Shown here: piece by piece, positions 3,001 to 43,749 of the stretch
Layout: every line of letters starts with the position of its first letter
How positions within the stretch are numbered: the stretch's first letter is position 1
From: Balanoglossus misakiensis
Lineage: Eukaryota; Animalia; Hemichordata
DNA length: 64,000 bases
Assembly (NCBI GenBank): GCA_040954595.2
Contig: CM082595.2
Span: 8,910,317-8,974,316, forward strand
Direction of reading: 5' to 3'
Program-made: the position numbers and the translations under genes
The notes under the pieces: generated by a model
What the model saw: only the letters and a program-made list of their open reading frames with translations
Told to the model about the DNA's origin: nothing
The model's database searches: none

Positions 3001-5465
3001 TTGATCTACTTGGATATGTCTCTTGATAAAAAGCACAACAGTCATGATTGTGCTCACATGCGTTTTATTGCTGCCAGGACATATACCAAATATTTTGATA
3101 ATTTTGCCAATGACTCTTGATCTACTTGGATATGTCTCTTGTTAAAAAGCACAACAGTCATTATTTTGTTCACATGAGTTTTATTGCTGCCAGGACATAA
3201 CCCAAATATTTTGATAATTATGGCAATGACCCTTGATCTTCTTTGATATGTCTCTTGTTAAAGAGCACAACAGTCATGATTGTGTTCACACGAGTTTTAT
3301 TGCTGTCAGGACATAACCCAAATATTTTGATAATTTTGGCAATGACTCTGGATCTACATGAGTTTTATTGGTGACATGACATAACCCAAATATTTTGATA
3401 ATTTTGGCAATGACCCTTGATCTACTTGGATATGTCTCTTGTTAAAAAGCACAACAGTCATGATTGTGTTCACACAAGTTTTATTGCTGCCAGGACATAA
3501 CCCAAATATTTTTTATAATTTTGGCCATGACCCTTGATCTACTTGGATATGTCTCTTGTTAAAAAGCACAACAGTCATGATTTTGTTTACGTGACTACTA
3601 TTGCTGCCAGGACATAACCCAAATATTTTGATAATTTTGCCAATGACTCTTGATCTACTTGGATATGTCTCTTGTTAAAAAGCACAACAGTCATTATTTT
3701 GTTCACATGAGTTTTATTGCTGCCAGGACATTACCCAAATATTTTGATAATTATGGCAATGACCCTTGATCTTCTTTGATATGTCTCTTGTTAAAGAGCA
3801 CAACAGTCATGATTGTGTTCACACGAGTTTTATTGCTGTCAGGACATAACCCAAATATTTTGATAATTTTGGCAATGACCCTTGATCTACTTGGATATGT
3901 CTCTTGTTAAAAAGCACATCAGTCATGATTTTGTTAACATGAGTTTTATTCCTGCCAGGACATAACTCAAATATTTTGATAATTTTGGCAATGACCCTTG
4001 ATCTACTTGGATATGTCTCTTGTTAAAAAGCACATCAGTCATGATTTTGTTAACATGAATTTTATTGCTGCCAGGACATATACCAAATATTTTGATAATT
4101 TTGGCAATGACTCTGGATCTACATGAGTTTTATTGCTGACATGACATAACCCAAATATTTTGATAATTTTGGCAATGACCCTTGATCTACTTGGATATGT
4201 CTCTTGTTAAAAAGCACAACAGTCATGATTGTGTTCACACAAGTTTTATTGCTGCCAGGACATAACCCAAATATTTTTTTATAATTTTGGCCATGACCCT
4301 TGATCTACTTGGATATGTCTCTTGTTAAAAAGCACAACAGTCATGATTTTGTTTACGTGACTACTATTGCTGCCAGGACTTAACCCAAATATTTTGATAA
4401 TTTTGGCAATGACCCTTGATCTACTTGGATATGTCTCTTGTTAAAAAGCACATCAGTCATGATTTTGTTAACATGAGTTTTATTGCTGCCAGGACAAACA
4501 CCAAATATTTTGATAATTTTGGCAATGACTCTTGATCTACTTGGATATGTCTCTTGTTAAAAAGCACAACAGTCATTATTTTGTTCACATGAGTTTTATT
4601 GCTGCCAGGACATAACCTAAATATTTTGATAATTATGGCAATGACCCTTGAACTACTTGGTTATGTCTCTTGATAAAAAGCCCAACAGTCATGATTTTGT
4701 TTACGTGACTACTATTGCTGCCAGGACATAACCCAAATATTTTGATAATTTTGGCAATGACCCTTGATCTACTTCGATATGTCTCTTGTTAAAAAGCACA
4801 ACAGTCATGATTGTGTTCACACGAGTTTTATTGCTGCCAGGACATAACCCAAATATTTTGATAATTTTGGCAATGACCCTTGATCTACTTGGATATGTCT
4901 CTTGTTAAAAAGCACAACAGTCACGATTGTGTTCACATGAGTTTTATTGCTGCCAGGACATAACCCAAATATTTTGATAATTTTGGTAATGACCTTTGAT
5001 CTTCTTGGATATGTCTCTTGTTAAAAAGCACAACAGTCATGATTGTGTTCACACGAGTTTTATTGCTGCCAGGACATAACCCAAATATTTTGATAAGTTT
5101 GGCAATGACCCTTGATCTACTTGGATATGTCTCTTGTTAAAAAGCACATCAGTCATGATTTTGTTAACATGAATTTTATTGCTGCCAGGACATATACCAA
5201 ATATTTTGATAATTTTGGCAATGACCCTTGATCTACTTGGATATGTCTCTTGTTAAAAGCACAACAGTCATGATTTGTTCACACAAGTACTACTGCTGCC
5301 AGGGCATAACCCAAATATTTTGATAATTTTTGCAATGACCCTTGATCTACTTGGGTATGTCTCTTGTCAAAAAGCACAGCAGTCATGATTTTGTTCACAT
5401 GAGTTTTATTGCTGCCAGGACATAACCCAAATATTTTGATAATTTTGGCAATGACCCTTGATCTA
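1..5465. repeat. Satellite array 1, 116-bp monomer (runs off the window start)
   Basis: GATATGTCTCTTG recurs at 88, 204, 320, 436 (period 116). Recurring variants include TTTACGTGACTACT and a shortened ...GGATCTACATGAG monomer. Confidence 0.97.
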
Positions 5466-7330
5466 CATTTCCAAAACTTGGTATGCACAGCAGATACAGC
5501 TTTTAAATTTAGAGGACCGGAACACCTAATGAAATACATGTATTAATCTTAACACAATAATTATGTATATAAGCTATTTAAAGTTAACCAATAAAGCGTA
5601 GAAGTCTGCTTGTTGTTGGACACTGATCAGTTTGGTATCAAATTTTGTTGGCACATTTTGCATCACCTCTGGCGTACTTTACCATTTCTAGGCATCCACA
5701 ACAGATACAGCCTTTGCTTTCTGTTGGAACCATGCTAACCACTTTGGCCACTCCAATGCTGCTTGTAGCTCTAATTGTCTTCTTCATGGCGGCCATATTG
5801 GATTTTCTAATAACTTTTAAAAGTTGACATTTTCATAAACTACAGGGCCAATCAAATTGTAGTTTACTGTAGGGTTGAAAGTTTGACAAAAATATCATTA
5901 GTGGTCATGTGACTTTGGGTGCCTTATTAGATTTTTTAAAAATCTCATTAAAAAATTACAAAAAATCTTTTTCTAATCAAGTTTTCAAGTGAATTGTGAT
6001 TGGTGTAACCTTATCAGAGCTAAATTGGATTTTCTGAACCCCGATTAAAAACTAAAATTCCCTATTTCTAGCCTACTCATTGAAAGCACACAATTTCCTT
6101 ATATGGATACGAGTCACCATATGATTAGAATACGTTACATATTTTGGCAACTTTCACATGTTCTTTGATCCATACTGTGCAGTTAAAAGTTTGACAATAA
6201 TATCGTTAGCAGCCATGTGACTTTGAATGCCTTATTGGAATTTTGAAAAAACTCATAAAAAATTCAAACAGACGTTTTCTAATCAAGTTTTCAAGTGAAA
6301 TGTGATTGGTGTCACCTTATTGGAGCCAAATTGGATTTCTCTGAACACTGATTTAAAACTAAGATTTCCTATTTCTAGCCTACTCATTGAAAACAAACAA
6401 ATTAGTTTTTGCCAACAATTTGTTGGCAACTCTCGCATGTCATTTGACCCAGTAATTCCAGAACTTAATTTTATGTGGATATGGCTCTTGTTAAAAAGCA
6501 TAACAGTCATGATTGTGGTCACATGAGTTTTATTGCTGCCAGGACTTAACCCAAATATTTTGATAATTTTGGCAATGACCCTTGATCCAAATTTCCAAAA
6601 CTTGGTATGCACAGCATATACAGCTGTTAAATTTAGAGGACCGGAACACCTAATGAAGTACATGTATTAACCTTAACACAATAATTATGTATATAAGCTA
6701 TTTAAAGTTAACCAATAAAGCGTAGAAGTCTGCTTTTTGTTGGACACTGATCAGTTTGGTATCAAATTTTGTTGGCACATTTTGCATCACCTCTAGCTTA
6801 CTTTACCATTTCTAGGCATCCACAACAGATACAGCCTTTGCTTTCTGTTGGAACCATGCTAACCGCTTTGGCCACTCCAATGCTACTTTTAGTTTTAATT
6901 GTCTTCTTCATGGCGGCCATATTGGCTTTTCTAATAAGCTTTAAAAGTTGAAATTTTCATAATATACAGGGCCAATCAAGTTCTAATTTACTGTGCGATT
7001 GAAAGTTTGACAAAAATATCATTAGTGGTCATGTGACTTTTGGTGCCTTATGGATTTTTTAAAAATCTCATTAAAAACTTCAAAAATCTTTTACTAATCT
7101 AGTTTTCAAGTGAATTGTGATTGGTTAAACCTTATTGGAGTCAAATTGGATTTTCTGAACAACGATTTAAAACTAAGATTTCCTATTTCTGGCCTACTCA
7201 TTAATTATTCGTGGATATGCCTCTTGTTGAAAAGCACAATGGTGATGATTTTTTTCACACGAATAGTACTGCTGCCAGGACATAACCCAAATTTTTTGAT
7301 AACATTGGCATTGAACTTTGTCCTAAGTTT
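5466..7330. repeat. ~1124-bp tandem duplication of a TE-like sequence carrying single diverged satellite-1 monomers
   Basis: Near-identical ORFs at 5645 and 6769 (offset 1124). Satellite-1-like monomers at ~6475-6590 and ~7212-7320. Motif ATGGCGGCCATATTGG in both copies. Confidence 0.85.
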
Positions 7331-7999
7331 GGCACCTGTATTCTTTTCTGAATATCTTATGGCGCCTAGACTAATAGCACTAGAGGTTTGGTTTTTGATG
7401 TATATGGACAAGTATGGGACTTAGCTTTTTTGTTACATTTGGAATCCACTGGACCAATGTTGAGCTTATTAAATATGTGAATAACTAATGCTGAGCTTAC
7501 CTATATTGTTACAGGTTGAATTTTTTATTAACATGCTCTACTATTGGACTTAATCTGAATTTCTTGACCAATGATAACCTTCAAATTTTGAGGGCTGGAA
7601 CACCTAATTACCAGGTTAACCAATAGAGCCAGAAGTCTTGTTTTTCATTTAATGCTGATTATTTTGGAAGAAAAAATTGTTGACAATTTTGGGTGAGCTC
7701 TTGGTGACCTTTGATCAGCTTTCCTATTTACATAGCAGATACAGCATTGGCACTCTCTGGTATCCATAGGAACTGCTTTGACCTAGCCAATGTTGGTTGC
7801 ACCTTAATTGCACCGCAGTATGTTGGTTTGGGCGAGCTTGCCACATTAATCCTATCATTATCATTGATTTTATTGATTTCATGTTTTTAATTCTTTCATT
7901 CTTTTTTTTCTGTAGGTCCCACCGGTACTCTTCTTCTTCTCTCTCTCTCTTTCTTTTTTACTTTTTCCTCTTCTTTCTTTTCTCTTTTTTTTTCTTTTT

Positions 8000-8490
8000 T
8001 TTTCCTGTAGGCCCCAATGGTAACACCATAATCAACCTACTAACGTAAAATTTGATGGATGGAGAGAGCGGAGTGTCAACCATAGTCAACCTACTAATAT
8101 AAACTTTGATGGAGGATGGATGGAGCGTCAACCATAGTCAACCTACTAATATAAACTTTGATGGATGGATGGAGCGGAGCGTCAACCATAGTCAACCTAC
8201 TAAAATATAAACTTTGATGGATGGATGGTGCTGCGGAGCGTCAACTTAAATGATGGAGAAGTGGAAGGATGGAGAAGTGGAGTTTTTTTCTCTGTTTTTT
8301 CCTCTTTTTTTCCTGTAGGGCTCACTGGTAACACCATAATCAACCTACTAACGTAAAATTTGATGGATGGATGAAGCGGCGTGTCAACCATAGTCAACCT
8401 ACTAAAATAAACTTTGATGGATGGATGGATGGAGCATCAACCTAAAGGATGGAGAAGTGGAAGAATGGAGAAGTGGAGTTTCAACATAAT
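8000..8490. repeat. Minisatellite-like short repeats (CAACCATAGTCAACCTACTAA...TTTGATGGATGG) with a duplicated block
   Basis: Motif repeats about seven times. TTTCCTGTAGG...GGTAACACCATAATCAACC occurs at ~8000 and ~8310. Confidence 0.8.
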
Positions 8491-10149: not shown

Positions 10150-13100
10150 CTTTGACACCGGGGTTTAAAATGCATACAGGGATACTAAAAGTTGACTGAA
10201 AATCCCTGGGTTAATACGTGTCCAAAAGCAATTTTATTTGACATTGCTAATGCAGCGATGACATTGAATCTGATTCTTTGCATCAGGGTAAATTGTGATG
10301 CAAGCTTGATGATGCAGCCCGGTAGATAGTGATGCAAACACTTCACTTTGACATGGGTATTTAATGCATGTGCATGGGTATTTAATGTTGACTGTAAATC
10401 CCCAGGTTAATTCTTGGCCAAAAGCACTGTAATTTGACATTGCTAATGCTACCGTGACACTAAATCTGATTCTTTGCATCAGGGTAAATTGTGAAGCAAG
10501 CTTGATGATGCATCGTGATAGATGGTGTTTCAAGCCCTTCACATTGACATTGGAATATAACGCATATGGGGATTGAAAGTTGATTGTGAATCCCCAGGTT
10601 AATACTTGGCCAAAAGCACTGTAATTTAAAATTGCTAATGCAATGGTGACATTCAATGTGATTCTTTGCATTAGGGGAAATGGTGTAGGAAGCCTAATGG
10701 TGCATCAGAGTAGATGGTGATGCAAGCTCTGCACTTTGACATAGGTATTTAATGCATATGCATGGGTATTTAATGTTGACTGTAAATCCCCAGGTTAATA
10801 CGTGGCCAAAAGCACTGTAATTTGACATTGCTAATGCTACCGTGACACTAAGTCTGATTCTTTGCATCAGGGTAAATTGTGAAGCAAGCTTGATGATGCA
10901 TCATGATAGATGGTGTTTCAAGCCCTTCACATTGACATTGGAATATAACGCATATGGGGATTGAAAGTTGATTGTGAATCCCCAGGTTAATACTTGGCCA
11001 AAAGCACTGTAATTTAAAATTGCTAATGCAATGGTGACATTGAATTTGATTCTTTGCATTAGGGGAAATGGTGTAGGAAGCCTAATGGTGCATCAGAGTA
11101 GATGGTGATGCAAGCTCTGCACTTTGACATAGGTATTTAATGCATATGCATGGGTATTTAATGTTGACTGTAAATCATCAGGTTAATACGTGGCCAAAAG
11201 CACTGTAATTTGACATTGCTAATGCTACCGTGACACTTAATCTGATTCTTTGCATCAGGGTAAATTGTGACGCAAGCTTGATGATGCATCATGATAGATG
11301 GTGTTTCAAGCCCTTCACATTGACATTGGAATATAACGCATATGGGGATTGAAAGTTGATTGTGAATCCCCAGGTTAATACTTGGCCAAAAGCACTGTAA
11401 TTTAAAATTGCTAATGCAATGGTGACATTGAATTTGATTCTTTGCATTATGGGAAATGGTGTAGGAAGCCTAATGGTGCATCAGAGTAGATGGTGATGCA
11501 AGCTCTGCACTTTGACATAGGTATTTAATGCATATGCATGTGTATTTAATGTTGACTGTAAATCATCACGTTAATACGTGGCCATAAGCACTGTAATTTG
11601 ACATTGCTAATGCAACAATGATATTGAATCTGATTCTTTGCATCAGGGTTAATGGCATTGCAGGCTTGATGATGCATCCCGGTAGATAGTGAGGCAAACA
11701 CTTCACTTTGACATGGGTATTTAATGCATGCACATTGATATCTAAAGTTGACTCTAAATCCCGAGGTTAATACATGGCCAAAAGCACTGTAATTTTAAAT
11801 TACTAATGCAAGGGTGACATTGAATATGAGTAAATGGTGAAGCAAACGTGATGATGCATCAGGATAGATGGTGTTTCAAGCCCTTCACATTGATTTTTGA
11901 ATATAATGCATATAGGGATTTAAAGATGATTATAAATCCTTAGGTTAAGACATGGCCAAAAGAACTTTTATTTGACATTGCTAATGCAACAGTGACATTG
12001 AATCTGATTCTATGCATCAGGGTAAATGGCGAAGCAAGCTTAATGATGCATCAGGACAGATGGTGTTTCAAGCCCTTCACATTCACATTGGAATATAACG
12101 CATATGGGGATTTGAAGTTGACTGTAAATCCTCAGGTTAATACGTGGCCAAAAGCAATTTTATTTGACATTGCTAATGCAATGGTGACATTGAATCTGAT
12201 CCTATGCATCAGGGTAAATGGCGATGCAGGCTTGATGATGCATCACGGTAGATAGTGATGCAAACAGTTCACTTTGACATGGGTTTAAATGGATATGGGG
12301 ATTTCAAGTTGATTACAAATCCCTGGGTTAATACGTGTCCAAAAGCAATGTAATTTGACATTGCTAATGAAATGGTGACATTGAATGTAATTCTTTGCAT
12401 TAGGGGAAATGGCTAAGCAAGCTTAATGATGCATTGGACTAGATGGTGATGCAAGCTATGCATTTTGACATACATATTTAATGCATATGCATGTGTATTT
12501 AATGTTGACTATAAATCCTCAGGTGAATACATGGCCATAAGCACTATAATTTGACATTGCTAATGAAATGGTGACACTGAATCTGATTCTTTGCATCAGG
12601 GCAAATGGCGAAGCAAGCTTAATGATGCATCGGAGTAGATGTTGATGCAAGCTCTGCATTTTGACATAGGTATTAAATGTATATACATGGATATTTAAAG
12701 TTGTCTGTAAATCCCCAGGTTAATACATGGCCATAAGCACTATAATTTGATATTGCTAATGAAATGGTGACACTGAATCTGATTCTTTGCATCAGGGCAT
12801 ATTGTGAAGCATGCTTGATGATGCATTAGGATCAATAGTGATGGAAACACTGCACTATGACATGGGCATTTAATGCATACGCATTGATATTTACAGTTGA
12901 CTCTAAATCCCAAGGTTAATACATGGCTAAAAGCGCTGTTATTTAAAATTACTAATGCAAGGGTGACATTGAATATGGGTAAATGGTGAAGCAAACATGA
13001 TGATGCATCAGGATAGATGGTGTTTTAAGCCCTTCACATTGACTTTTGAATATAATGCATATGAGGATTTAAAGTTGATTGTAAATCCCTAGGTTAATAC

Positions 13101-16100
13101 ATGGCCAAAAGCAATTTTATTTGACATTGCTAATTGAACGATGACATTGAATCCGATTCTTTGCATCAGGGTAAATGGCGATGCAAGCTTGATGATGCAT
13201 CACGGTAGGTAGTGATGCAAACACTTTACTTTGACATGAGTATTAAATGCAAATGGGGATTTCAAGTTGATTACAAATCCCTGGGTTAATACGCGTCCAA
13301 AAGCACTGTAATTTGACATTGCTAATGCGATGTTGACATTGAATGTAATTCTCCGCATTAGGGCAAATGGCAAAGCAAGCTTAATGATACAATGGAGTAG
13401 ACGGTGATGCAAGCTATGCATTTTGACATAGGTATTTAATGCATGTGCATGGGTATTTAATGTTGAATGTAAATTCTCAGGTTAATACATCTCCAAAAGC
13501 ACTGTAATTTAAAATTGCTAATGTAAGGGTGACATTGAATCTGATTCTTTGCATTAGGGGAAATGGCGTAGCAAGCCTAATGATCCATCTGAGTAGATGG
13601 TGATGCAAGCTAAGCATTTTGACACAGGTACTAAATGTATATACATGGGTATTTAAAGTTGTCTGTAAATCCCCAGGTTAATACATGGCCATAAGCACTA
13701 TAATTTGACATTGCTAATGAAATGGTGACACTGAATCTGATTCTTTGCATCAGGGCATTTTGTGAAGCATGCTTGATGATGTATTAGGGTCAATAGTGAT
13801 GGAAACACTGCACTATGACATGGGTATTTAATGCATACGCATTGATATTTACAGTTGACTCTAAATCCCGAGGTTAATACATGGCTAAAAGCGCTGTAAT
13901 TTAAAATTACTAATGCAAAGGTTACATTGAATATGGGTAAATGGTGAAGCAAGCTTGAAGATGCATCAGGGTAGCTGGTGTTTCAAGCCCTTCACATTGA
14001 CATTGGAATATAATGCATATGGGGATTTAAAATTGATTGTAAATCCCTAGGTTAATACATGGCCAAAAGCACTGTAATTTAAAATTGCTAATGCAATAGT
14101 GACATTGAATGTGATTCTTTGCATCAGGGCATATTGTGAAGCATGCTTGATGATGCATTAGGGTCAATAGTGATGGAAACACTGCACTATGACATGGGTA
14201 TTTAATGCATACGCATTGATATTTACAGTTGACTCTTAATCCCGAGGTTAATACATGGCTAAAAGCACTGTAATTTAAAATTACTAATGCAAAGGTTACA
14301 TTGAATATGGGTAAATGGTGAAGCAAGCTTGAAGATGCATCAGGGTAGATGGTGTTTCAAGCCCTTCACATTGACATTGGAATATAATGCATATGGGGAT
14401 TTAAAATTGATTGTAAATCCCTAGGTTAATACGTGGCCAAAAGCAATTTTATTTGACATTGCTAATGCAACGATGACATTGAATCCGATTCTTTGTATCA
14501 GGGTAAATGGCGATGCAAGCTTGATGATGCATCACGGTAGATAGTGATGCAAACACTTCACTTTGACATGGGCATTAAATGCATATGGGGATTTCAAGTT
14601 GATTACTAATCCCTGGGTTAATACGCGTCCAAAAGCACTATAATTTGACATTGCTAATGCGATGTTGACATTGAATGTAATTCTCCGCATTAGGGCAAAT
14701 GGCAAAGCAAGCTTAATGATGCAATGGAGTAGACGGTCATGCAAGCTATGCATTTTGACATAGGTATTTAATGCATGTGCATGGGTATTTAATGTTGAAT
14801 GTAAATTCTCAGGTTAATACATCTCCAAAAGCACTGTAATTTAAAATTGCTAATGTAAGGGTGACATTGAATCTGATTCTTTGCATTAGGGGAAATGGCG
14901 TAGCAAGCCTAATGATCCATCTGAGTAGATGGTGATGCAAGCTAAGCATTTTGACACAGGTACTAAATGTATATACATGGGTATTTAAAGTTGTCTGTAA
15001 ATCCCCAGGTTAATACATGGCCATAAGCACTATAATTTGACATTGCTAATGAAATGGTGACACTGAATCTGATTCTTTGCATCAGGGCATATTGTGAAGC
15101 ATGCTTGATGATGTATTAGGGTCAATAGTGATGGAAACACTGCACTATAACATGGGTATTTAATGCATACGCATTGATATTTACAGTTGACTCTAAATCC
15201 CAAGGTTAATACACGGCTAAAAGCGCTGTAATTTAAAATTACTAATGCAAAGGTTATATTGAATATGGGTAAATGGTGAAGCAAGCTTGAAGATGCATCA
15301 GGGTAGCTGGTGTTTCAAGCCCTTCACATTGACATTGGAATATAATGCATATGGGGATTTAAAATTGATTGTAAATCCCTAGGTTAATACATGGCCAAAA
15401 GCACTGTAATTTAAAATTGCTAATGCAATGGTGACATTGAATGTGATTCTTTGCATCAGGGCATATTGTGAAGCATGCTTGATGATGCATTAGGGTCAAT
15501 AGTGATGGAAACACTGCACTATGACATGGGTATTTAATGCATACGCATTGATATTTACAGTTGACTCTTAATCCCGAGGTTAATACATGGCTAAAAGCAC
15601 TGTAATTTAAAATTACTAATGCAAAGGTTACATTGAATATGGGTAAATGGTGAAGCAAGCTTGAAGATGCATCAGGGTAGATGGTGTTTCAAGCCCTTCA
15701 CATTGACATTGGAATATAATGCATATGGGGATTTAAAATTGATTGTAAATCCCTAGGTTAATACGTGGCCAAAAGCAATTTTATTTGACATTGATAATGC
15801 AACGATGACATTGAATCCGATTCTTTGTATCAGGGTAAATGACGATGCAAGCTTGATGATGCATCACGGTAGATAGTGATGCAAACACTTCACTTTGACA
15901 TGGGCATTAAATGCATATGGGGATTTCAAGTTGATTACAAATCCCTAGGTTAATACGCGTCCAAAAGCACTATAATTTGACATTTCTAATGCGATGTTGA
16001 CATTGAATGTAATTCTCCACATTAGGGCAAATGGCAAAGCAAGCTTAATGATGCAATGGAGTAGACGGTGATGCAAGCTATGCATTTTGACATAGGTATT

Positions 16101-19100
16101 TAATGCATGTGCATGGGTATTTAATGTTGAATGTAAATTCCCAGGTTAATACATCACCAAAAGCACTGTAATTTAAAATTGCTAATGTAAGGGTGACATT
16201 AAATCTGATTCTTTGCATTATGGGAAATGGCGTAGCAAGCCTAATGATCCATCTGAGTAGATGGTGATGCAAGCTAAGCATTTTGATATAGGTACTAAAT
16301 GTATATACATGGGTATTTAAAGTTGTCTGTAAATCCCCAGGTTAATACTTGGCAAAAAGCAATTTTATTTGACATTGCTAATGAAATGGTGACACTGAAT
16401 CTGATTCTTTGCATCAGGGTAAATGGCGATGCAAGCTTGATGATGCATCCCGGTAGATAGTGATGTAAACACTTCACTGTGACATGGGTATTAAATGCAT
16501 ATGGGGATTAAAAGTTAACTGAAAATCCCTGGATTAATACAGGTCCAAAAGCACTGAAATTTGACATAGCTAATACAATGGTGACATTGAATGTGATTCT
16601 TTGCATCAGGGCAAATTGCGAAGCAAGCTTAATGATGCATCAGAGTATATGGTGATGCAAGCTATGCACTTTGACATAAGTATTTAATGCATATGCATGG
16701 GTATTTAATGTTGACTGTAAATCCCCAGGTTAATACGTGGCCAAAAGCACTGTAATTTGACATTGCTAATGCTACCGTGACACTAAATCTGATTCTTTGC
16801 ATTAGGGTAAATTGTGAAGCAAGCTTGATGATGCATCAGGATAGATGGTGTTTTAAGCCCCTCACATTGACATTGGAATATAACGCATATGGGGATTTAA
16901 AGTTAATTGTAAATACCCAGGTTAATACATTGCCAAAAGCACTGTAATTTAAAATTGCTAATGCAATGGTGACATTGAATGTGATTATTTGCATTAGGGG
17001 AACTGGCGTAGCAATCCTAATAGTGCATCAGAGTAGATGGTGATGCAAGCTCTGCACTTTGACATAGGTATTTAATGCATATGCATGTGTATTTAATGTT
17101 GACTATAAATCCTCAGGTGAATACATGGCCATAAACACTATAATTTGACATTGCTAATGAAATGGTGACACTGAATCTGATTCTTTGCATCAGGGCATAT
17201 TGTGAAGCATGCTTGATGATGCATTAGGGTCAATAGTGATGGAAACACTGCACTATGACATGGGTATTTAATGCATACGCATTGATATTTACAGTTGACT
17301 CTAAATCCCGAGGTTTATACATGGCTAAAAGCGCTGTAATTTAAAATTACTAATGCAAAGGTTACATTGAATATGGGTAAATGGTGAAGCAAGATTGAAG
17401 ATGCATCAGGGTAGCTGGTGTTTCAAGCCCTTCACATTGACATTGGAATATAATGCATATGGGGATTTAAAATTGATTGTAAATCCCTAGGTTAATACAT
17501 GGCCAAAAGCACTGTAATTTAAAATTTCTAATGCAATGGTGACATTGAATGTGATTCTTTGCATCAGGGCATATTGTGAAACATGCTTGATGATGCATTA
17601 GGGTCAATAGTGATGGAAACACTGCACTATGACATGGGTATTTAATGCATACGCATTGATATTTACAGTTGACTCTTAATCCCGAGGTTAATACATGGCT
17701 AAAAGCACTGTAATTTAAAATTACTAATGCAAAGGTTACATTGAATATGGGTAAATGGTGAAGCAAGCTTGAAGATGCATCAGGGTAGATGGTGTTTCAA
17801 GCCCTTCACATTGACATTGGAATATAATGCATATGGGGATTTAAAATTGATTGTAAATCCCTAGGTTAATACGTGGCCAAAAGCAATTTTATTTGACATT
17901 GCTAATGCAACGATGACATTGAATCCGATTCTTTGTATCAGGGTAAATGGCGATGCAAGCTTGATGATGCATCACGGTAGATGGTGATGCAAACACTTCA
18001 CTTTGACATGGGCATTAAATGCATATGGGGATTTCAAGTTGATTACAAATCCCTGGGTTAATACGCGTCCAAAAGCACTGTAATTTGACATTGCTAATGC
18101 GATGTTAACATTGAATGTAATTCTCCGCATTAGGGCAAATGGCAAAGCAAGCTTAATGATGCAATGGAGTAGACGGTGATGCAAGCTATGCATTTTGACA
18201 TAGGTATTTAATGCATGTGCATGGGTATTTAATGTTGAATGTAAATTCCCAGGTTAATACATCTCCAAAAGCACTGTAATTTAAAATTGCTAATGTAAGG
18301 GTGACATTGAATCTGATTCTTTGCATTATGGGAAATGGCCTAGCAAGCCTAATGATCCATCTGAGTAGATGGTGATGCAAGCTAAGCATTTTGACATAGG
18401 TACTAAATGTATATACATGGGTATTTAAAGTTGTCTGTAAATCCCCAGGTTAATACATGGCCATAAGCTCTATAATTTGACATTGCTAATGAAATGGTGA
18501 CACTGAATCTGATTCTTTGCATCAGGGCATATTGTGAAGCATGCTTGATGATGTATTAGGGTCAACAGTGATGGAAACACTGCACTATGACATGGGTATT
18601 TAATGCATACGCATTGATATTTACAGTTGACTCTAAATCCCGAGGTTAATACATGGCTAAAAGCGCTGTAATTTAAAATTACTAATGCAAAGGTTACATT
18701 GAATATGGGTAAATGGTGAAGCAAGCTTGAAGATGCATCAGCGTAGATGGTTTTTCAAGCCCTTCACATTGACTTGGAATATAATGCATATGGGGATTTA
18801 AAATTGATTGTAAATCCCTAGGTTAATACGTGGCCAAAAGCAATTTTATTTGACATTGCTAATGCAACGATGACATTGAATCCGATTCTTTGCATCAGGG
18901 TAAATGGCGATGCAAGCTTGATGATGCATCATGGTAGATAGTGATGCAAACACTTCACTTTGACATGGGCATTAAATGCATATGGGGATTTCAAGTTGAT
19001 TACAAATCCCTGGATTAATACGCGTCCAAAAGCACTGTAATTTGACATTGCTAATGCGATGTTGACATTGAATGTAATTCTCCGCATTAGGGCAAATGGC

Positions 19101-19995
19101 AAAGCAAGCTTAATGATGCAATGGAGTAGACGGTGATGCAAGCTATGCATTTTGACATAGGTATTTAATGCATGTGCTTGGGTATTTAATGTTGAATGTA
19201 AATTCCCAGGTTAATACATCTCCAAAAGCACTGTAGTTTAAAATTGCTAATGTAAGGGTGACATTGAATCTGATTCTTTGCATTATGGGAAATGGCGTAG
19301 CAAGCCTAATGATCCATCTGAGTAGATGGTGATGCAAGCTAAGCATTTTGATATAGGTACTAAATGTATATACATGGGTATTTAAAGTTGTCTGTAAATC
19401 CCCAGGTTAATACTTGGCAAAAAGCAATTTTATTTTACATTGCTAATGAAATGGTGACACTGAATCTGATTCTTTGCATCAGGGTAAATGGCGATGCAAG
19501 CTTGATGATGCATCCCGGTAGATAGTGATGCAAACACTTCACTTTGACATGGGTATTAAATGCATATGGGGATTAAAAGTTGACTGAAAATCCCTGGGTT
19601 AATACAAGTCCAAAAGCACTGAAATTTGACATAGCTAATACAATGGTGACATTGAATGTGATTCTTTGCATTAGGGGAAATGGCGTAGCAAGCCTAATGA
19701 TGCATCAGTGTAGATGGTGATCCAAGCTCTGCGCTTTGGCATACATATTTAATGCATGTGCATGGGTATTTAATGTTGAATGTAAATTCCCAGGTTAATA
19801 TATGCATGAGTATTTAATGTTGACTGTAAATCCCTAGGTTAATACATGGCCATAAGTACTGTAAGGGGTAGATGGTGATGCAAGCTCTGCACTTTGACAT
19901 GGGGATTAAATGCCTGCTGAGGGGGATTTTAAGTTGTCTGTAAATCCCCAGGTTGATATGTGGCCAAAAGCACTGTAATTTGACATTGCTAATGA
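10150..19995. repeat. Satellite array 2, ~192/196-bp monomers (plus a ~178-bp variant) with 388-, 958- and 1332-bp higher-order repeats
   Basis: GGTTAAT motif at 10211, 10407, 10599, 10795 (spacings 196, 192, 196). Matching ORFs recur at offsets 958 (12740/13698), 957 (17972/18929) and 1332 (13200/14532, 13698/15030, 14027/15359). Confidence 0.97.
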
Positions 19996-35759: not shown

Positions 35760-37839
35760 AGCGTTAACATAACTTTGACAGAATAAGTTAACGCCATAAC
35801 TTTGACAGAATAAGAGTTGCCTCAAACGGCTCTAACCGAATTTCCATTAATAGCAGAACAAACAAGCTGTAATCAATACGCCAACCTTTAAAATATTACT
35901 TTAGAAAGTTTGTATTCATACTTTCTTCAAGTTGTCATAACGCTAACCCGAAATGTGTTTTAGTATTGCCTTTGTATTAATGGGCTAGATTCATGGCGTT
36001 ATATGTCATAAATTAAAAAGACAACCCTTATTGTTTTTGATAATATTTATGTCGGAGAATCCACAATGAAAAATATGTATTTCAATTTCATAACTCAAAA
36101 TGATTTTCAAATCCATGACCTTATTTTCAACTCCAGTGATCGTACATCCTGAACCTTGTTCCAGTAAATGATTGGTCATTACAGGGTTAATGGGCACTCT
36201 CCCGTTCTCTTCCTCCGCAGTTTCATTCATGTTCTTGTTTGACGGAAATGGGTGTGACCAGACGCTTGAATGTTTTCATGTGGGTTGAGTTGTTCATCGG
36301 GAACGGCCTCCTGGTGTGTCTGTACAGGTACGCAAGGAGAAACTGCCCACAAGAAGCTGCGAGTGAAACTATTTAAGGTAGTATGTGCCTCGCGGTCCGA
36401 GATTCAGACAAATGATAGTCCTCAAAACTTTTTCAAGTCATTGATTTACTAAAGTGTGTGGTGAGTCTCTTTGAAAACAACAACAATATTACTCATCATA
36501 TTGTATTTTTTTGAAACTATAAAATGAAGTTGACAATGCACCAAACAGATTCTATTTATTTCTTCATGACCATGTTCACCCCAAGGTCATAAGGACCTGC
36601 AAGTATATGCCAGAGCCAGAGTCGACATTACCGAAGCCAGAGTTTAAAGCTTACAGGTCACCCCTTGCCAGCTCATGACTAGCTAAACTGCCATGGATGC
36701 CAAGAGATATAGGACTACGGTAACCTGTAGATGGTTTCAGTATGTTTGAAGAAAGTGGTGGCGCACTTTTGGCTACATTTGAAATGGCTATGGTACCAGT
36801 GGTTGAATTTGCAAAGGTGACCTTTGACCTGGCATCTTTAAAGATATTAAAGAACGATTTACCATTCCTTGTTGTCGTAAAATGACATCTGTAATAACAC
36901 TGCGGCCCAAACGCCGCCCTCTCGGGGCAGTATTTCTGTGGCGCGTTTCAATAGCTCATGAATAATTAATTAGCGCGATCATGGCGGTCGCTCAGCGGAG
37001 CTGAAACCTGAATACAGTGAAATTCGGTAAGTGTTTCTTGTCATTTTTTACGATCTACTGCACCATACATAATAGTGTTCACAGTAAACGAAACAAAAAT
37101 ATTATTTCATCTGTACATTTCATATTGAATCACTGAAATAACTTTAAAAATAACTGATTTACCGCGCGGGTGTGCTGTTGCTAACGACAGCACTGCCCTC
37201 AGCAACCACTTACACAGGGTGGAAAATTCAACGATTTAGCCTTGCTAACCTGTTATCTGACATTTCAAAACCATACGAGTTTACCTAACTATGGTTATTT
37301 CACGGATGTTATATTTGAACAACTGCTACCACAGGTTTAACGAAATTACACCAAGCGATTCTCGATACCTCAGCATGTCGTACGCCTCCGGCTGTGTTTA
37401 CATGTACTGCAATGGCGACACGTCTCAGCTGTCACTGCGTGTGGTTTTGTTAGCAAAAGTCTGAGTTGGAATGGATTAAATTTTAAAATCGAGAACCAAT
37501 AGTTTTAGCTAAATTACGTACTTAATGCATTACACTATAAATGCAAAGTTAAAAATCAAAACAGAAAATTTTGAACCTGTGTCTGCGCAGTACAGTTATA
37601 TTCACTCCAATTCTCCCATTGAAATATGCCCATCTCTGCGTATACACGTTGGTATGTATGGAGAGCTGTGGTCGATATGCCTAGCTCAGAGCAGGTTTTA
37701 TCAAATGTCTTTCAGTGATTTTCTTTGCATTGCTGTTGGGTATCGGTTGAAAAATACTAAAGTCACTAATGTACTATAAATATACATGCATAATTATTAA
37801 TTATTATACATTCTTATTCATTGTAATTTTCCTCTTCAG

Positions 37840-38305
37840 ATCAGAAACAGCTCAGGTATGTGGTGGAGTAAACTGTTACTTAGATGTAGGGCACCCCTGC
37901 AAAGTTTATCCATCAACATGCCAAGTAGGAAAGAAAAAAACATACTTCAACATAGGTCAGTGGGCAAAGGAACAGAAGCTAGCCAGAGAAATTGCAAAGG
38001 AAAAGCATTCACAGGAGCTATTAAGAGAAAATTCAAAGACTAGGTCATTGCTAGAAAGAGTGCAGACTAATGCCTTGCTATAGAGGACAGAAGAATGCCA
38101 GCCAAAATATCGGTTTAACTTGGGGGAGTGGTCTAGACAGCGGAAGAGAAAGAGGGATCAGGAGAGTAGCATAATCGAGGATAACCTTAATAAGATCAGT
38201 GCTGCTAAAAGACTAGTAAAACGGGCTAAAACCCGTCTTGCTAGACTTGAGCAGAGGAATAATAATGTGAGACAGGAGTTAGGTGCTAGGACCTACAGTA
38301 TAAAG
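37840..38305 (+). pseudogene. Predicted upstream coding exon of the transposase, with an in-frame TAG at 38081-38083
   Basis: Acceptor TTTTCCTCTTCAG ends at 37839. ORFs 37769-38083 and 38120-38314 share a frame and are separated by a single stop. Donor AAG|GTACAG is phase 0, matching the acceptor ending at 38536. Confidence 0.6.
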
Positions 38306-38536
38306 GTACAGTGAGTTTAAACGATTGAATAAATTTAATTTGTCAGTTTTACTCAAATAGAATTCAATCATATGCACAGTTAGCTAATGTTAGGGGAACA
38401 TCGTCTGTTTTTATCATGCATATTTTGAAGTCCTTGGGATTACTAGCTTGCTCCTATAATCACAATGAAATGCTCAAAATTTAGGCTGATAAATCCACTA
38501 ACCTCTTCATGTACATTTTTTTGTGTAATCTTGCAG

Positions 38537-40768
38537 AGAAAACTAGATGCTTTGCAACCCAGGTGGATTCACAAGAACTCAGAAGTGTGTGAAGATAACA
38601 GTGAGGTTTTGACAATATCACGGCGTGAACAGTATGAACGTAGATGTAAAACCTTGTCAGCCGCCACATCTATTCATGTATCAACAACCGATACCAGTTT
38701 AGCCAATGGTGTAGGTAATTTTACCAGATTGAAACCTTCAAAAGCTGCACTTGATGGTTTGTGGTTTACCCTCATCAACTCTGCCAAACCTGAACAGATT
38801 GAAACCTATTTGAAAACATCACCTCAAATCAGAGAGAAATTAATGCCATCGATAGTAGACAAATCTATTGATCAATTTGAAAAAAGTGAAAGCAATTTAA
38901 TAAGGAGTGTCAGAGTTCTGTATGAGGGTGGAGTGCTATCAAAACGCAAATACACTTGTCTGAGGCTGAGTGAACTGCAAACATCATCTAAAATACAAAA
39001 TCCAAGTAGGGCAATGCAGTTTCACTTTGGCTGCAGAATACCAAGATTACTGACATACAACAAAGTTGTACGCTATGTTAGTAATCTTGATATTTGTACT
39101 CTTGAACCCATTCTGACAGCAGAAGGGAAACAGGTAGGTTTGAAACGTAACATTGAAGAGTTACTTGTTAAGATTGCCAATCTGTATTTACAAATGAAAT
39201 CAACCCAGCCAGACATTCTTAACTGGTTTGATAGACAAGAAGGTAACTTCCAGATTAGTATAGGTGCTGATGGTGCACCATTTGGAAAACATGGCCAAGC
39301 TACTGCCTGGTTGGTCAGTTGTTTGAATGTTGGACATCGTGTTGCAAGCCCAGATGATAATTTTCTACTGTTGGGGGCAAATCTCAAAGAAGATGATCCG
39401 ATTATGATTGACTATGCACATTCATTATCAAAAGAACTGAATTGTATCCAGAAACGTAAATACAATGTTGGCAATCTTTGTGTGACTTTCCAAGTTTCGC
39501 TCTTGCCTTTTGATCAGAAAGGTTTAGCTTCAATGCCTGGAGAGCTTTCCAATGCTGCACAGTACTTAAGCTCTTTTGCTAATGTTTCAAAGTCAGATAG
39601 AGATTGTATTGGAGCAGATATTGGTCCAGGTAAAAAATGGCAAGAATGGTCATATGACAAACGCATTAAAGATGTTGAAGCTGTGGAGAAATTCAAATCG
39701 CAACCAAAGAATAGAGATGGCAAGCCAAAAACTGTGCGGCCAAAAGTCACTAAATTTATAGCCAGTAGAAAATCCAGACAGGAATTTGTACCCCCTCTTG
39801 GTCGATTTATCGACTGTGCTAAAGTTGAACCATTGCACATGAAAAACAATGCATGGCAGTACTATTTCCAGATGCTGTTGATAGATGCAGTTGCTCACAC
39901 TTCACAAACAGATTTTGATAAGGGGGTTAAGATTGAAAATCTCCCAAAGGAGTCTTGTCTATACAAATTCCTGTCTGCATTAAAATACCAAGTGAGAGCT
40001 GGAAAACTGTACAACAAAATTTGAAAGTTCTTTAGTGAAAACAATGCAAAATCACTTTCTCAAATAAGTGCTGTTTATCGCTTTACTGGGGAAGAGTCCC
40101 GTAAACTAGCATGGAAATTCATGTCACTGATTAAGACACCCATGGGTGATAAAGATAGTGTAAAGCGGCGAGCTCGATTGGCTCTTTTCACATATCTTGG
40201 GTTGTTGCTGAGGGATATTACCTTGCTCTTTTCAAGGTTTAATCTGAGTGAAGGGGATTTACTTGTCCTGAAACAGAAATGTACATGGTACTTTAACCTC
40301 CATTCACTATTTTTTGATGTAAATAATACTGTTTGGCATATTGGATACGCAGTACCTAAACATGCAGCAAGTGTGTATCAGCAATTCAAACTTGGTTTGG
40401 GGTTGAATACTATGGAAGGTCGAGAAGCAAAACATCTTCGTCTTCTTGAATTGAGTAAGAATTCCACTCCTCAGAACAGGTGGACCCTCATATTCCGCCA
40501 TGAATACACAATGCTCTTTTGGCTAAGAGAAAGAAATCCAAAAGCAGACAAATATAGGCGGGCCAATCTAGTTCAGTATGAACTTAAAGAAAGAGAAAAA
40601 TATATACCCAGTCTGTACTATGACAGTGCAGGTTACTGTATGTGTGGTAACATGAAAGATGAAGCAGTGTCTACATGTAAAATTTGTAATGACCCAGTTA
40701 TTGCTGAAATAAAACAAGCAGCAGTGTCTGGCAAGCTGAGTAATAAACTGAAGAAAATTGTTCTGTGA
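38537..40768 (+). pseudogene. DDE transposase related to RAG1/Transib/Chapaev, with an in-frame TGA at 40022-40024
   Basis: The 519-aa and 215-aa ORFs share a frame and are bridged by KFFSEN...VYRFTGEESRKLAWKF. Motifs in order: IGADGAPFG (D, 39269), PFDQK (D, 39512), VEPLHMKNN, YRFTG, WHIGYAVPKH, GLGLNTMEGREAKH (E, 40424), then a C-terminal CxC...CxxC. Confidence 0.78.
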
Positions 40769-41378
40769 AGTGTATTTGCCCTTCTGTGCAAAATGTTTCC
40801 TGTTTCAGTGTTTTTAACTTACCGTGTTGAAATGTTGTGAATGTCAAATTGAAATGAATGATATTATTAACATGTATTAAACTGGAAATAAACTCTGCCA
40901 CACTTCTGTGTTCACAACTGTTACAACAGATGCATGTCAGGCCATTGTAACTAAACGGTATATATGCAACATCATGAACTTCAGTATTCTCACAGTGTAC
41001 ATAAACATGTCATGATTCTGATACAACTGCATGTTATCTGTACTAACACAAACCTTAAATGCAGGGTTAATGTGATATTCTATTACAGTCTAAATGAATA
41101 GATTTGAAACGTTTGTGTCTTAAGTCTATCATATTACAATAATATTGAATATAATTATAAGATTTCCTTGCTAAGTAATTAACGATAATCAGAATACATT
41201 AATTTAATGTAGTTAAAATCACAATAAGTTAACTTTCAAATCCCATGAATTGTATATATCAAATTGAATGATTTTATATTTATTGAATGCTAAGAAAGTT
41301 AAATGCAATTTATAATGAAATTCATGACAATTCCTTGTACTTCTGCTGTATTGCATGTAATGTTGATTGTTGGAATTG

Positions 41379-41421
41379 AATAAAGACAATACTACTTCAT
41401 TTTCAATCTACTGTTTTTATT
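41379..41421. terminator. Candidate opposing polyadenylation signals between the convergent genes
   Basis: AATAAA (+) at 41379-41384 and TTTATT (AATAAA on -) at 41416-41421. Another + AATAAA lies near 40887. The context is AT-rich, so chance occurrence is possible. Confidence 0.35.
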
Positions 41422-41530
41422 TCTTAATTAATGAGAACACAACACCGACAAACTGTATATATTGACTGAAGTGTCAAGAGTATTGGACAGAAGGCCAATT
41501 TTGCATTAGACTTGCAATGTTACTGATGTT

Positions 41531-42184
41531 CTAGTTCTCTGAGTGCATTGGAATGCTGTGTTTGTTCCAGGCTCCAAAGCAAAAGTTGACCACAACAGAT
41601 TCCCTGTTCATGTAGTATTTGACAATACACGGCTTTGTTTCTGTGCATATGACAGCCACTCGCTTTCCTTTGACCACTCTCGCCAGCACATTCTCCTTAT
41701 CTTCCGGTCCGAGATTTCTGTCATCACAGCAACCTCTCCGCAGGACGTAAGTCAGCTTCAATAGGTTGGTAAAGGTCAAGGTTACGATGGCCTTGGACGT
41801 CTTCTCATGGATCCCAAAACTATTCCGAGTGGCGTCATGATGAAATACAGCAAACACTTCCTTGGGCATTTGTCTAGAAAAGCCGCTTTTCCAAGGCGAT
41901 CTCAACGAAGGTGAGGCTGACAGGCGTGCGTGGAAACAACGCAGCCAGTGACCCATTTCACGTTGGAAAATAGGGAATACCGCAACATCTCGATAACGAA
42001 TTTTGTCTTTTGTAATCTTGTCGTTCCTCAGTAGAACCCTTTTGGCTGAATCGGACAATTCATCAAACAGGGAATGTACATGTATAACATCCAACATACA
42101 TTTTCGACGCAGAATTAATGACTTAGCAGCTCGTAATTTGCGCTGTATGATTTTCTCCGTATCAACCAACACGGCCGCCGCCAT
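41531..42184 (-). CDS. Intact 217-aa basic protein of unknown family; transposon-borne second gene
   Basis: Uninterrupted ATG-to-stop ORF starting 84 bp inside the right terminus in a CAAGATGGCGG context. Minus-strand AATAAA at 41416-41421. Confidence 0.7.
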   Translation of the reverse strand: MAAAVLVDTEKIIQRKLRAAKSLILRRKCMLDVIHVHSLFDELSDSAKRVLLRNDKITKDKIRYRDVAVFPIFQREMGHWLRCFHARLSASPSLRSPWKSGFSRQMPKEVFAVFHHDATRNSFGIHEKTSKAIVTLTFTNLLKLTYVLRRGCCDDRNLGPEDKENVLARVVKGKRVAVICTETKPCIVKYYMNRESVVVNFCFGAWNKHSIPMHSEN

Positions 42185-43749
42185 CTTGGAAAAAGCGTTG
42201 CTACGGTGATGGCGGCAATCGCGCTTCGCGGAATACTGCTCAAACTACAGTGGGTCTGGCCCGTAGTGTAACTTATACTTTATCTGTTCATCTTGAAGTA
42301 CTATATATTTAAACGCCAATTTTCCATTGCCAATCAAGTTTTTACAAATAAATTGTAATATGCATGTTGATTTTACAAAAACTCCTTACTTCCAAGTGAA
42401 TTCTGTTACACATCACGTAACTATTTTCCCCACGAATTCTTCAGTTGCTAACTCGGAAATTTCATATATTGGGCAGAAATTGGATACATTACCCAACCAT
42501 TAAAATTACAGTTTTCTATTTTAATTGATCGTCCATAACTTCAAGTACTTTGACTTGACATACATTAAAAACATCATGGTGAATAAATAAAAATTATTTG
42601 ATTATCTAATTGTGCATGTTTACATGGTTTTATTTTAGTATGCTGGGTACTTAATGTCTAATGGCTCGCTGATTTTATACTGTTCAAGATGACAATCTAA
42701 TTTTAGTTTTCAGCTAATAATTGAAATCAATGATTCAAAAAAATTGAATTTTGACATGAATAAACTTCTTGTTCATGGCAGTTGCTGTGTTTTGTTTCAT
42801 TTGTATTCAATTTTGCAAGCATACCATTGAGCACAGTTTGATTTGATTAAACACGTTTATCGGAAAATTTTGTCATTTGAAATATCTGTTTTTGCGCCCT
42901 CTACCATTTGACCAAATGATTCTCTTATTTTGGTGGCCTTTGTCTGTGTATATGAGAATACTATAGTACTCTCGCATCGATCATAGTAGAAGTTGAAAAC
43001 GTCTCTTGCCACGTGGCCTGGAAGAAAGGCGATCTTTAGAGTAAAATAAAACAAACTATCCAGATAGGAAGCTAGAAAAGAAGTTGAATCGTTGAAATTT
43101 TATTTATTTTATATTGTTAATATCGTTGGTGATGTTGACTGGCCGACAATCTTTGCATACAGCAATATCTTTCAAGATAAATAATTTATGTCCTAAAGGT
43201 ATTACTTTTAGTGGTCTGACGGAGATTTTTTCTGCTGTAACATGCAAAACCTGCGGCGGACCTGAGGTCATGTTGCGAACACTGTAGTTTTGTTACGCCC
43301 GCCATCCTTCGGACGTTTACCTCATCGGGGCTTCTTTGGGGAATCAGCCACGTCCGAAGGGTGAGAGTGTAAATTCTCTCCCTCTCCTTCTCCACCCAAC
43401 ATATTCATAGAGTCAGAGAGAGGTACCCGGCATATCGTAAACTTAACGAGAGGCATAACGAGACTTTCAACAAGTTTTCCGAGTAACACAAATAGTTCTG
43501 GTTTATTACTGGTCACACGTAAGAATTACACGACTCTATCCATGCTCGTTGACTCCCGTCACGGATCTCCGGTGATAATAATGTGATATCAAATTTCACC
43601 ACCTCTTATTAATACGTTAGTCAAGTATTATGTCATAAAAAGAACACGTCATCTTAATATTTCTTAAACATGAACTTAGCGCGTGATATCTCTATCTCGT
43701 TCTGACATGTATCAATTACACAATCTTGTTTACTCTGAGTCAAGTACCT

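Follow-up and report, generated by a model that had tools for sequence, protein, structure and literature searches.

The window analyzed here is a stretch of 64,000 nucleotides of the hemichordate Balanoglossus misakiensis (contig CM082595.2, positions 8,910,317 to 8,974,316 of the forward strand, assembly GCA_040954595.2), and positions below count from its first letter unless another locus is named. At 36898-42268 it contains a cut-and-paste DNA transposon of 5,371 bp with terminal inverted repeats and a DDE transposase inside. The element starts with CAC, ends with GTG and is bordered by TAA on each side. Two convergent genes lie between its ends, a transposase on the plus strand and a small basic protein (open reading frame 2, ORF2) on the minus strand. 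Each end is composed of two blocks separated by a spacer, a layout that resembles RAG recombination signals. The features are listed in Table 1.

Table 1. Features of the transposon in window coordinates, followed by the left/right identity of transposon ends by distance from the terminus
Feature	Position	Strand	Remark
Left target site duplication, TAA	36895..36897	.	empty-site contigs have a single TAA
Left terminal block CACTGCGGCCCAAAC	36898..36912	+	CAC first; 12/15 match to right block
Left spacer gccgccctctcggg	36913..36926	+	14 nt, G+C-rich; unrelated to right spacer
Left inner block GCAGTATT	36927..36934	+	positions 30-37; identical to right inner block
Left subterminal motif ATCATGGCG	36978..36986	+	positions 81-89; one mismatch to YY1-type consensus, other strand
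Upstream transposase coding pieces	37751..38314	+	basic FNIGQW-type motif twice, coiled-coil part; two frames here
Main transposase frame	38447..40765	+	773 codons; sole break is TGA at 40022-40024
Putative catalytic residue D275	39269..39271	+	invariant
Putative catalytic residue D356	39512..39514	+	invariant
Putative catalytic residue E660	40424..40426	+	invariant
L463-H464		+	invariant
ORF2	41534..42184	-	217 codons from ATG at 42184; convergent with transposase, basic protein
Right subterminal motif AAGATGGCG	42179..42187	-	positions 82-90 from end; perfect CGCCATNTT on + strand; ORF2 start codon
Right inner block GCAGTATT	42232..42239	-	positions 30-37 from end; identical to left
Right spacer ccactgtagtttga	42240..42253	-	14 nt; direct reading
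Right terminal block CACTACGGGCCAGAC	42254..42268	-	...GTG on + strand; 12/15 match to left block
Right target site duplication, TAA	42269..42271	.	window letters and run contigs
Left/right identity, 11 families	positions 1-11		0.96
Left/right identity, 11 families	positions 12-15		0.73
Left/right identity, 11 families	positions 16-27		0.42
Left/right identity, 11 families	positions 29-36		0.705 (62/88)
Left/right identity, 11 families	positions 37-60		0.25

The limits of the element are given by contigs from two public runs (run contigs) that lack the insert. They join 36894 to 42269 (joint depths 3,030 and 5,160), skipping 5,374 bases with four ambiguous letters, and the empty host repeat has one TAA where the window has the two copies listed in Table 1. 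Since the contigs without the insert carry a single TAA, the element measures 5,371 bp with a 3-bp duplication. In addition, a loose end at 36898 in a run contig continues into sequence found right of 42272. The flanks of the element belong to a high-copy repeat (flank depths of 1,000-8,000 in the run contigs), so the empty sites are paralogous. Run contigs covering the element are at least 99% identical to the window, with 16 letters and three gaps differing over about 3.9 kb; they have G at 40022, the T of the TGA stop in the window, and one base fewer at 37934. Given these few differences and the sense codon at the TGA, the window copy belongs to a young family and is slightly damaged; such a young element may still be active.

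Each end of the window element consists of a terminal block of 15 nt, a spacer of 14 nt and an inner block of 8 nt (GCAGTATT), with GCGCG further inward. This is the layout that an earlier reading of the letters alone (the sequence-only reading) had described, and it is confirmed by direct inspection: the terminal blocks differ between left and right at positions 5, 9, and 13 only, the equally long spacers are unrelated (3/14 matches in register), the 8-mer is identical, and GCGCG, a 5-mer that is weak by itself, lies at 44-48 on the left and at 45-49 on the right, with the claimed offset of 1 nt. Beyond about 50 nt, we found no convincing similarity between left and right except for ATGGCGG at 84-90 and 85-91. 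That the ends resemble each other past the terminal block by chance is next to impossible. The 8-mer alone would allow it, being as frequent as expected in 64 kb (two occurrences, both at the ends, against 1.24 expected; at least two in 37 of 100 shuffles). However, the degenerate 15-mer with at most two mismatches has two matches in 64 kb, both at the ends (0.10 expected), the combination of 15-mer, 14 free positions and 8-mer is found twice against 0.00 expected (0/100 shuffles), and the architecture recurs in families without the window element. The run contigs covering the ends contain no alternative letter in 36898-36945 or 42214-42268; they agree at both ends, and the spacer difference is thus not a decay private to the window copy, as the sequence-only reading had allowed for.

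The ends of related families were taken from metagenome contigs, which on scanning gave 80 loci encoding relatives of the transposase. When these loci were searched for CAC/GTG pairs, 179 pairs had 9/10 terminal matches, and a distinct set among them flanks the transposase gene. These gene-flanking ends start with CACGCYGGG, and a motif scan that is independent of pairing found 55 such ends against about nine expected, a few of them falling within the gene. The terminal form shared across families is CAC-N2-Y-GGG, and the block conserved across families comprises about 9-11 nt, not 15. For a multi-copy family the limits were set by comparison of copies, with similarity beginning at L008:668 and stopping at 8048. 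Complete elements number 11 (the window, L004, L018, L059, L011, L014, L015, L048, L001, L008, and L009), and six of them have a perfect 3-bp duplication (TAA, AGC, ATT, GAT, AAT, and TAG). A quick tree of six element-defined transposases (window, L018, L059, L011, L014, and L008) has at least three deep clades, with the window transposase and a Ptychodera protein on a branch of their own; the terminal blocks are similar across clades, as a comparison of CACTACGGGCCAGAC (window) with CACGCCGGGCCAGCG (L014) illustrates.

Left and right ends were compared in register for 11 families, nine of them with both ends from a single locus. The identity profile has two peaks (Table 1): it is high over the terminal block, declines through the spacer, rises again at positions 29-36 and drops to background further inward. 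The best 8-nt window beyond position 19 begins at 29, and none of 5,000 shuffles reaches its 62 matches (maximum 40). With the window element excluded, the identities are 0.44 (16-27), 0.69 (29-36), and 0.26 (37-60). When the inner regions of left and right ends are shifted against each other, the best fit lies at 0 in eight of the 11 families and at +1 in one, with no clear value in two, so that the equal spacing proposed by the sequence-only reading extends beyond the window. Individual families follow the same scheme with blocks of their own: 14 nt, a spacer of 14 nt and GGCACGTT at 29-36 in L017/L058, 15 + 12 + GCGCCAWTT in L014, and 16 + 12 + GGCCA in L004.

Several points weigh against two separate blocks at a fixed distance, and some of them favor another account, improbable in our view, in which each end is a single unbroken repeat of some 37-45 bp, the middle being under weaker selection, with neither modules nor a spacing constraint. 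In the L069/L068 family the repeat runs without interruption over 33 bp, and most of the spacer is retained in L018; continuous inverted repeats, which the sequence-only reading had named as the opposing outcome, are thus found in the former and largely in the latter. The fall at 12-15 is gradual, and identity at 16-27 stays above the 0.25 background. The spacing in L059 differs by 1 between ends, L004 and L048 have no clear register, and L015 combines a right spacer shortened by 8 bp with a perfect TAG duplication. No inner-block sequence is common to the families, and the data on the family of the window element comprise a single version of either end. Two of the 11 end pairs are composites of loci 87-94% alike, and the 11 families are not 11 independent trials because some ends are related (L048/L001, L014/L069). 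Identity at 1-10 is partly built in by the selection of pairs with 9/10 matches, while the profile past 10 is unaffected. Finally, a matching duplication is absent in five of the 11 complete elements, and neither of the two complete copies of the L008 family has one. L008 and L009 share the left flank only, which suggests chimeric assembly, and the missing duplications perhaps reflect metagenome assemblies that join different copies.

On the other side, the inner block is in register in eight families despite free substitution in the spacer, and the lack of an accumulation of insertions and deletions points to a constraint on length, which a continuous repeat would not impose. The inner peak is also sharp, with one and four of the 11 families matching at positions 27 and 28 and 9, 7, 10, 10, and 9 at positions 29-33. 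In L011, 11 identical bases are followed by 10 wholly unrelated ones and then by a near-perfect block (14/15 identical). The alignment of both ends across the family, which the sequence-only reading had recommended, therefore yields a variable spacer and a kept second block in the overall profile, with a conserved spacer in two families. The two-part symmetric end is thus a trait of the family, and its geometry is the one described in the literature for 23-type RAG signals and for the ends of Transib.

Two further observations concern individual families. L015:6941 and L014:7313 represent two versions of the right end of one family, an 8-bp spacer deletion apart. The multi-copy 7.4-kb family (L008:1513, also L005-L010) has a third end-like sequence 845 bp inside its left end; at L008:1513 some 45 nt of this sequence match the right end, in inverted orientation. 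The distance of ATTTCGG from the terminus is about 24 nt on the left and about 34 nt on the right in this family, a possible asymmetry of one turn.

A search with the transposase found 114 relatives. The best, named from Ptychodera flava, is 82% identical; others, with 24-44% identity, carry the names of corals, a soft coral, a sea anemone, amphioxus, and a nemertean. A profile search returned 3,436 clusters (at 50% identity) at E <= 1e-3; the best 150 matches listed are all strong family members and provide no bridge to named families. Invariant in 21 aligned sequences are D275 (within GADGAPFGK), D356 (P.D.K), L463-H464, N468, and E660 (GREAKH), and the same sequences have a C-terminal Cys cluster in common. 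The second D is followed by F..F[AG][ND]V with at most one Cys, and the region corresponding to H(4)H has one invariant His (H639). None of the 21 members matches a Pfam family at E <= 10, Transposase_21 included, and the family profile finds no RAG1 or Transib chain among the PDB sequences at E <= 10 (a stray match has E 1.1). The upstream coding pieces of the window gene were identified by comparing its open reading frames with the N-termini of the relatives P0083 and P0093. Within 37900-38314 the basic motif occurs twice (..KTYFNIGQWAKEQK.. and ..KYRFNLGEWSRQRK..) and is followed by a coiled-coil-like stretch; the motif is also present at the N-termini of P0083 and P0093. The N-terminal columns of the 21 sequences, several of which begin from Met, contain no conserved Cys/His cluster, and Pfam detects no zinc-finger family common to these members, though first exons may be missing. 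Longer fused forms of the transposase were not found, which is weak evidence.

The relationship to RAG1 appears at the level of predicted structure. The AlphaFold model of the transposase (predicted local distance difference test, pLDDT, of 82.3) places D275 on strand 267-277, D356 just past strand 344-352, and E660 on helix 657-669. All three would thus lie in an RNase H-like part, an assignment of region rather than a residue-by-residue pairing with D600/D708/E962 of RAG1. Foldseek returned 49 matches at E <= 0.001, and among those listed all are RAG1, BbRAGL or HzTransib, with RAG1 as the best (1.2e-12). In VIA-align, the model superposes residues 143-700 on residues 459-1006 of RAG1 (Z 22.5, root-mean-square deviation 3.9 A, 468 residues), followed by BbRAGL (Z 20.2) and HzTransib (20.1) and then, with far lower scores, by the P element (11.5), ISCth4 (7.6), and Hermes (6.0). 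The transposase core is therefore predicted to have the RAG1/Transib fold. We should note that the solved structures matched by the model include no CMC transposase, so that membership of the wider CMC-Transib group is the safe reading. In the ESM Atlas, the model of the closest named relative is similar to RAG1 clusters (template modeling, TM, score 0.60-0.63) and to Transposase_21/Plavaka clusters (0.59-0.62; clusters carrying Transposase_21, 0.61-0.62). The latter are about as close as RAG1, and the fold may hence span the wider CMC-Transib group.

A helical domain precedes the core (residues ~40-128; pLDDT 84 when folded alone) and may resemble the nonamer-binding domain of RAG1. In VIA-align, the RAG1 nonamer-binding domain with DNA (3gnb_A) ranks 8th among 48,161 chains (Z 4.0), with 62/68 residues aligned (model 1-89 on 390-456), collinear with the alignment of the core, and two rows of the full-length alignment also extend into the RAG1 nonamer-binding domain. 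The match lies at noise level (other rows, 3.5-5.3) and Foldseek finds nothing at E <= 0.001 for this domain alone, both of which speak against the resemblance. The predicted structure gives a hint of a weakly nonamer-binding-domain-like fold.

The second gene is conserved in position and orientation. In the window, ORF2 is part of a 237-codon minus-strand frame that adjoins the right end. A homologous frame of 190-237 codons occupies the same place with the same orientation in 9/9 complete elements (L004:5706-6350, L018:3678-4316, and L059:6431-7060 among them; window ORF2 against L059, 4e-23, and against L004, 6e-17), and among 31 loci that extend 1,500 nt or more past the transposase frame, 24 have a convergent ORF2. 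The encoded protein of about 210 residues has an isoelectric point of 9.0-9.9 in all nine and invariant P-W, F and G positions. A search of 5.8 billion proteins yielded no relatives at near lengths and the ESM Atlas no lead. ORF2 matches no Pfam family, and the PDB sequences give chance-level matches only (E above 1). Both the N-terminal domain of the transposase and the basic ORF2 protein are candidates for the reader of the inner block.

Beyond the two blocks, a YY1-type motif recurs in the end regions, for which the consensus given in PMC7481187 was used. Within the first 100 nt of 22 ends (loci L001-L069 and the window), CGCCATNTT with at most one mismatch has 19 matches in 17 ends, against a mean of 1.6 (maximum 7) in shuffles and 0.8 per 22 windows in the interiors of the elements. 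Its prevailing inward reading is AANATGGCG, at distances of 47-92 nt from the terminus. ATGGCG starts at positions 84 (left) and 85 (right) in the window; at the left end the motif opens a frame of seven codons only. Spacer composition differs between the two sides: at positions 12-28, the left end (transposase side) is richer in G+C than the right end (ORF2 side) in eight of the 11 families, with none reversed (Wilcoxon p 0.008). The values are 0.71 and 0.47 in the window and 0.71 and 0.18 in L011. This asymmetry could be a promoter feature or a means of telling the ends apart.

These data bear on a further explanation, namely that the inner block and AANATGGCG are promoter or host-factor sites of the two inward-facing genes, symmetric because each end has a promoter. 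The enrichment of the YY1-type motif and the G+C-richer left spacers fit this explanation, as does the location of the motif near or within the inner block in L014 (right end, position 29) and L059 (left end, position 18). A precedent is the ProtoRAG inner block TR5 (GCCATCTTG), described as binding YY1 and affecting both transcription and recombination (PMC7481187). The inner block of the window, however, is not YY1-like, its YY1-type motif lying 45-50 nt further in, and inner blocks vary by family, a variation more readily explained by co-evolution with a protein of the element than by a conserved host factor. At most right ends, the ORF2 start codon (Met-Ala) falls within the motif and by itself accounts for part of the conservation there, and a promoter element would not need to lie at an equal distance from the cut site at both ends. 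We therefore regard promoter or host-factor sites as an unlikely explanation of the inner block.

The reading that we consider likely is that the ends are the terminal inverted repeats of a 3-bp-duplicating transposon whose DDE enzyme has the predicted RAG1/Transib fold, with the CAC block as the recognition and cut site and positions 30-37 as a separate protein site at a fixed distance. By analogy to the solved RAG1, BbRAGL, and HzTransib complexes, the core would recognize the CAC block and cut there, with a nick at CAC and release of the element in the manner of RAG1 and Transib. Some three helical turns further in, a second contact would hold the DNA, and the inner block could be held either by the ORF2 protein or by the N-terminal helical domain, which lies collinear with the nonamer-binding domain of RAG1. 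The spacer would serve as a ruler whose length matters more than its sequence. We infer in this way separate roles of the two blocks in cleavage and binding. As both ends resemble a 23-type signal, the element would pair two like ends, as described for most Transib families.

The published Transib end consists of a heptamer, a variable stretch of 22/23 bp and a nonamer at position 30 or 31, within a 38-bp repeat (PMC1131882), and most Transib families are described as 23-like at both ends (Kapitonov and Jurka, 2005; PMC1131882). The ends described here share with this account the CAC-first block, the variable spacer, a second block from about position 30 within about 38 bp, and mostly the same 23-like form at both ends, next to the core of predicted RAG1 fold. 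Together with the peak at 29-36 in 11 families, this geometry and fold support the two-part, recombination-signal-like end proposed from the letters alone. The symmetric spacing, on the other hand, is no mark of difference from Transib, since most Transib families as described are 23-like on both sides. The differences lie elsewhere. The duplication has 3 bp in the window and in five further elements, against 5 bp in Transib. The heptamers are CACTGCG/CACTACG in the window and CACGCYG in relatives, against CACAATG/CACTATG in Transib, with only CAC in common. The terminal block is CACTRCGG or CACGCYGGG, and the inner block varies by family and is not A-rich, unlike that of Transib. Furthermore, the transposase is not matched at the sequence level by models of RAG1 or Transib, it does not keep the positions of the C(2)C and H(4)H motifs, and a conserved second gene accompanies it. 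Duplication length and end sequence count little for classification because they vary within the Transib lineage, of which some elements are described with 3-bp duplications (preprint 10.64898/2026.08.26.747230).

ProtoRAG ends are described as TR1, 27/31 bp and TR5 (PMC8289069). Like amphioxus ProtoRAG in its published form, the present family has two convergent genes between two-part ends, YY1-type motifs in the end regions and a predicted RAG1-like fold (BbRAGL as in the structural comparison above), and it shares the initial CAC, which is reported as essential in ProtoRAG. In contrast to the present family, ProtoRAG is described with a 5-bp duplication and unequal spacers, a YY1 site that is TR5 itself, whereas the 9-mer of the window lies further in and in opposite orientation (the TR5 9-mer is present in the right end of the window, plus strand, 42180-42188), and a RAG2-like partner, against a protein of about 210 residues from no known family here. 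Since two-part ends resembling recombination signals have already been published for Transib and ProtoRAG, the layout as such is not categorically new.

In the scheme of Kapitonov and Koonin (2015; PMC4411706), Transib, TransibSU, Chapaev, and Chapaev3 are drawn as one superfamily, CMC-Transib. Chapaev has as hallmarks a 3-4-bp duplication and invariable 5'-CAC...GTG-3' termini (PMC4079192). The present family agrees with Chapaev/Chapaev3, as described, in the 3-bp duplication, the CAC...GTG termini, a DDE transposase with an LH motif, and animal hosts that include cnidarians and deuterostomes. It differs from the described Chapaev in that C(2)C, H(4)H and the N-terminal Chapa zinc finger were not seen in the 21 sequences. 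For Chapaev3, a duplication of TWA between A and T is given; A-TAA-C in the window fits TWA and the A only, and the duplications of related families (AGC, ATT, GAT, AAT, and TAG) are not TWA. An account of a second gene in Chapaev was not found in the literature searched, a scope outside which Repbase Reports fall, and PMC3630058 lists Chapaev3 fragments only.

PIF/Harbinger, suggested by TAA and two genes, was dropped as a candidate, as neither protein has a Pfam match and the predicted fold is RAG1-like. The plant En/Spm (CACTA) elements have a short CACTA-type terminal repeat, a 3-bp duplication and further protein-binding motifs inside the ends, and encode two proteins from one transcription unit, one of them a DNA-binding helper. 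Their inner sites are 12-bp motifs, repeated many times across hundreds of bases. Unlike En/Spm, the present family has a single inner block at a fixed distance and two convergent genes. Transposase_21 has no match among the 21 members at E <= 10, but the Atlas clusters carrying it are structural neighbors. The 3-bp duplication and the missing zinc motifs place the family outside Transib and Chapaev proper, and we place it within the CMC-Transib group as a branch so far without a name, although one may exist in Repbase. In the literature, with the Repbase and RepeatMasker libraries outside the scope of the search, we found no described two-gene family with a RAG1 fold and a 3-bp duplication.

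RAG signals are usually traced back no further than Transib and RAG-like transposons with 5-bp duplications. Here the same end geometry is found in a large unnamed family of animal transposases that have 3-bp duplications and are without RAG1-type zinc motifs, and the finding extends to a large transposon family that has two genes, a predicted enzyme like RAG1 and ends like RAG signals. Its recurrence in ten related families makes it likely that the layout is older than the RAG/Transib lineage. If the layout is homologous, the principle of heptamer, spacer and nonamer is older than the split between Transib and RAG. One possible scenario, which we put forward tentatively and with some doubt, is that the RAG-signal layout and a convergent pair of genes, one with a RAG1 fold and one for a small partner, are ancestral to CMC-Transib-RAG. 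The present family would then be a surviving side branch, with its inner block read by the nonamer-binding-domain-like domain or by ORF2, and the YY1-type sites of its two ends would link the element to a host factor in the way known from ProtoRAG. Other parallels to ProtoRAG, open to direct testing, are the conservation of a second gene and the presence of the YY1-type motif at either end, and a young, maybe active element offers a test bed for spacer-length rules, the pairing of ends, and the small partner protein.

The run contigs also contain a high-copy relative, about 82% alike (depth 1,734 against 116, 15x), which touches the window at 42130-42243 and 41533-41580. It joins 41580 to 42130, dropping 549 bases of ORF2. 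Its end reads ...CCCGCAGTG, with the terminal 9-mer CACTGCGGG in common with the window and the next 16 bases different, and its start may lie two bases further outward. It is likely a family of non-autonomous derivatives with the same terminal 9-mer and another spacer. If the ends coincide, GCAGTATT may sit at 30-37 in this relative as well, with nine of the 20 differences outside those listed. In run X2, a contig with a loose end (depth 510) has the left end from 36901 inward next to another flank, ...AAACCAT, which suggests a second insertion site, with either CAT replacing CAC or a clipped alignment. Outside the transposon, the window contains three large satellite arrays, at 1-5466, 10188-19804, and 43753 to about 64000, with units of 116 bp, 196 bp (about 50 copies), and 27/105/181 bp (A+T-rich, G+C 0.27), respectively. 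The host repeat around the transposon differs from all three.

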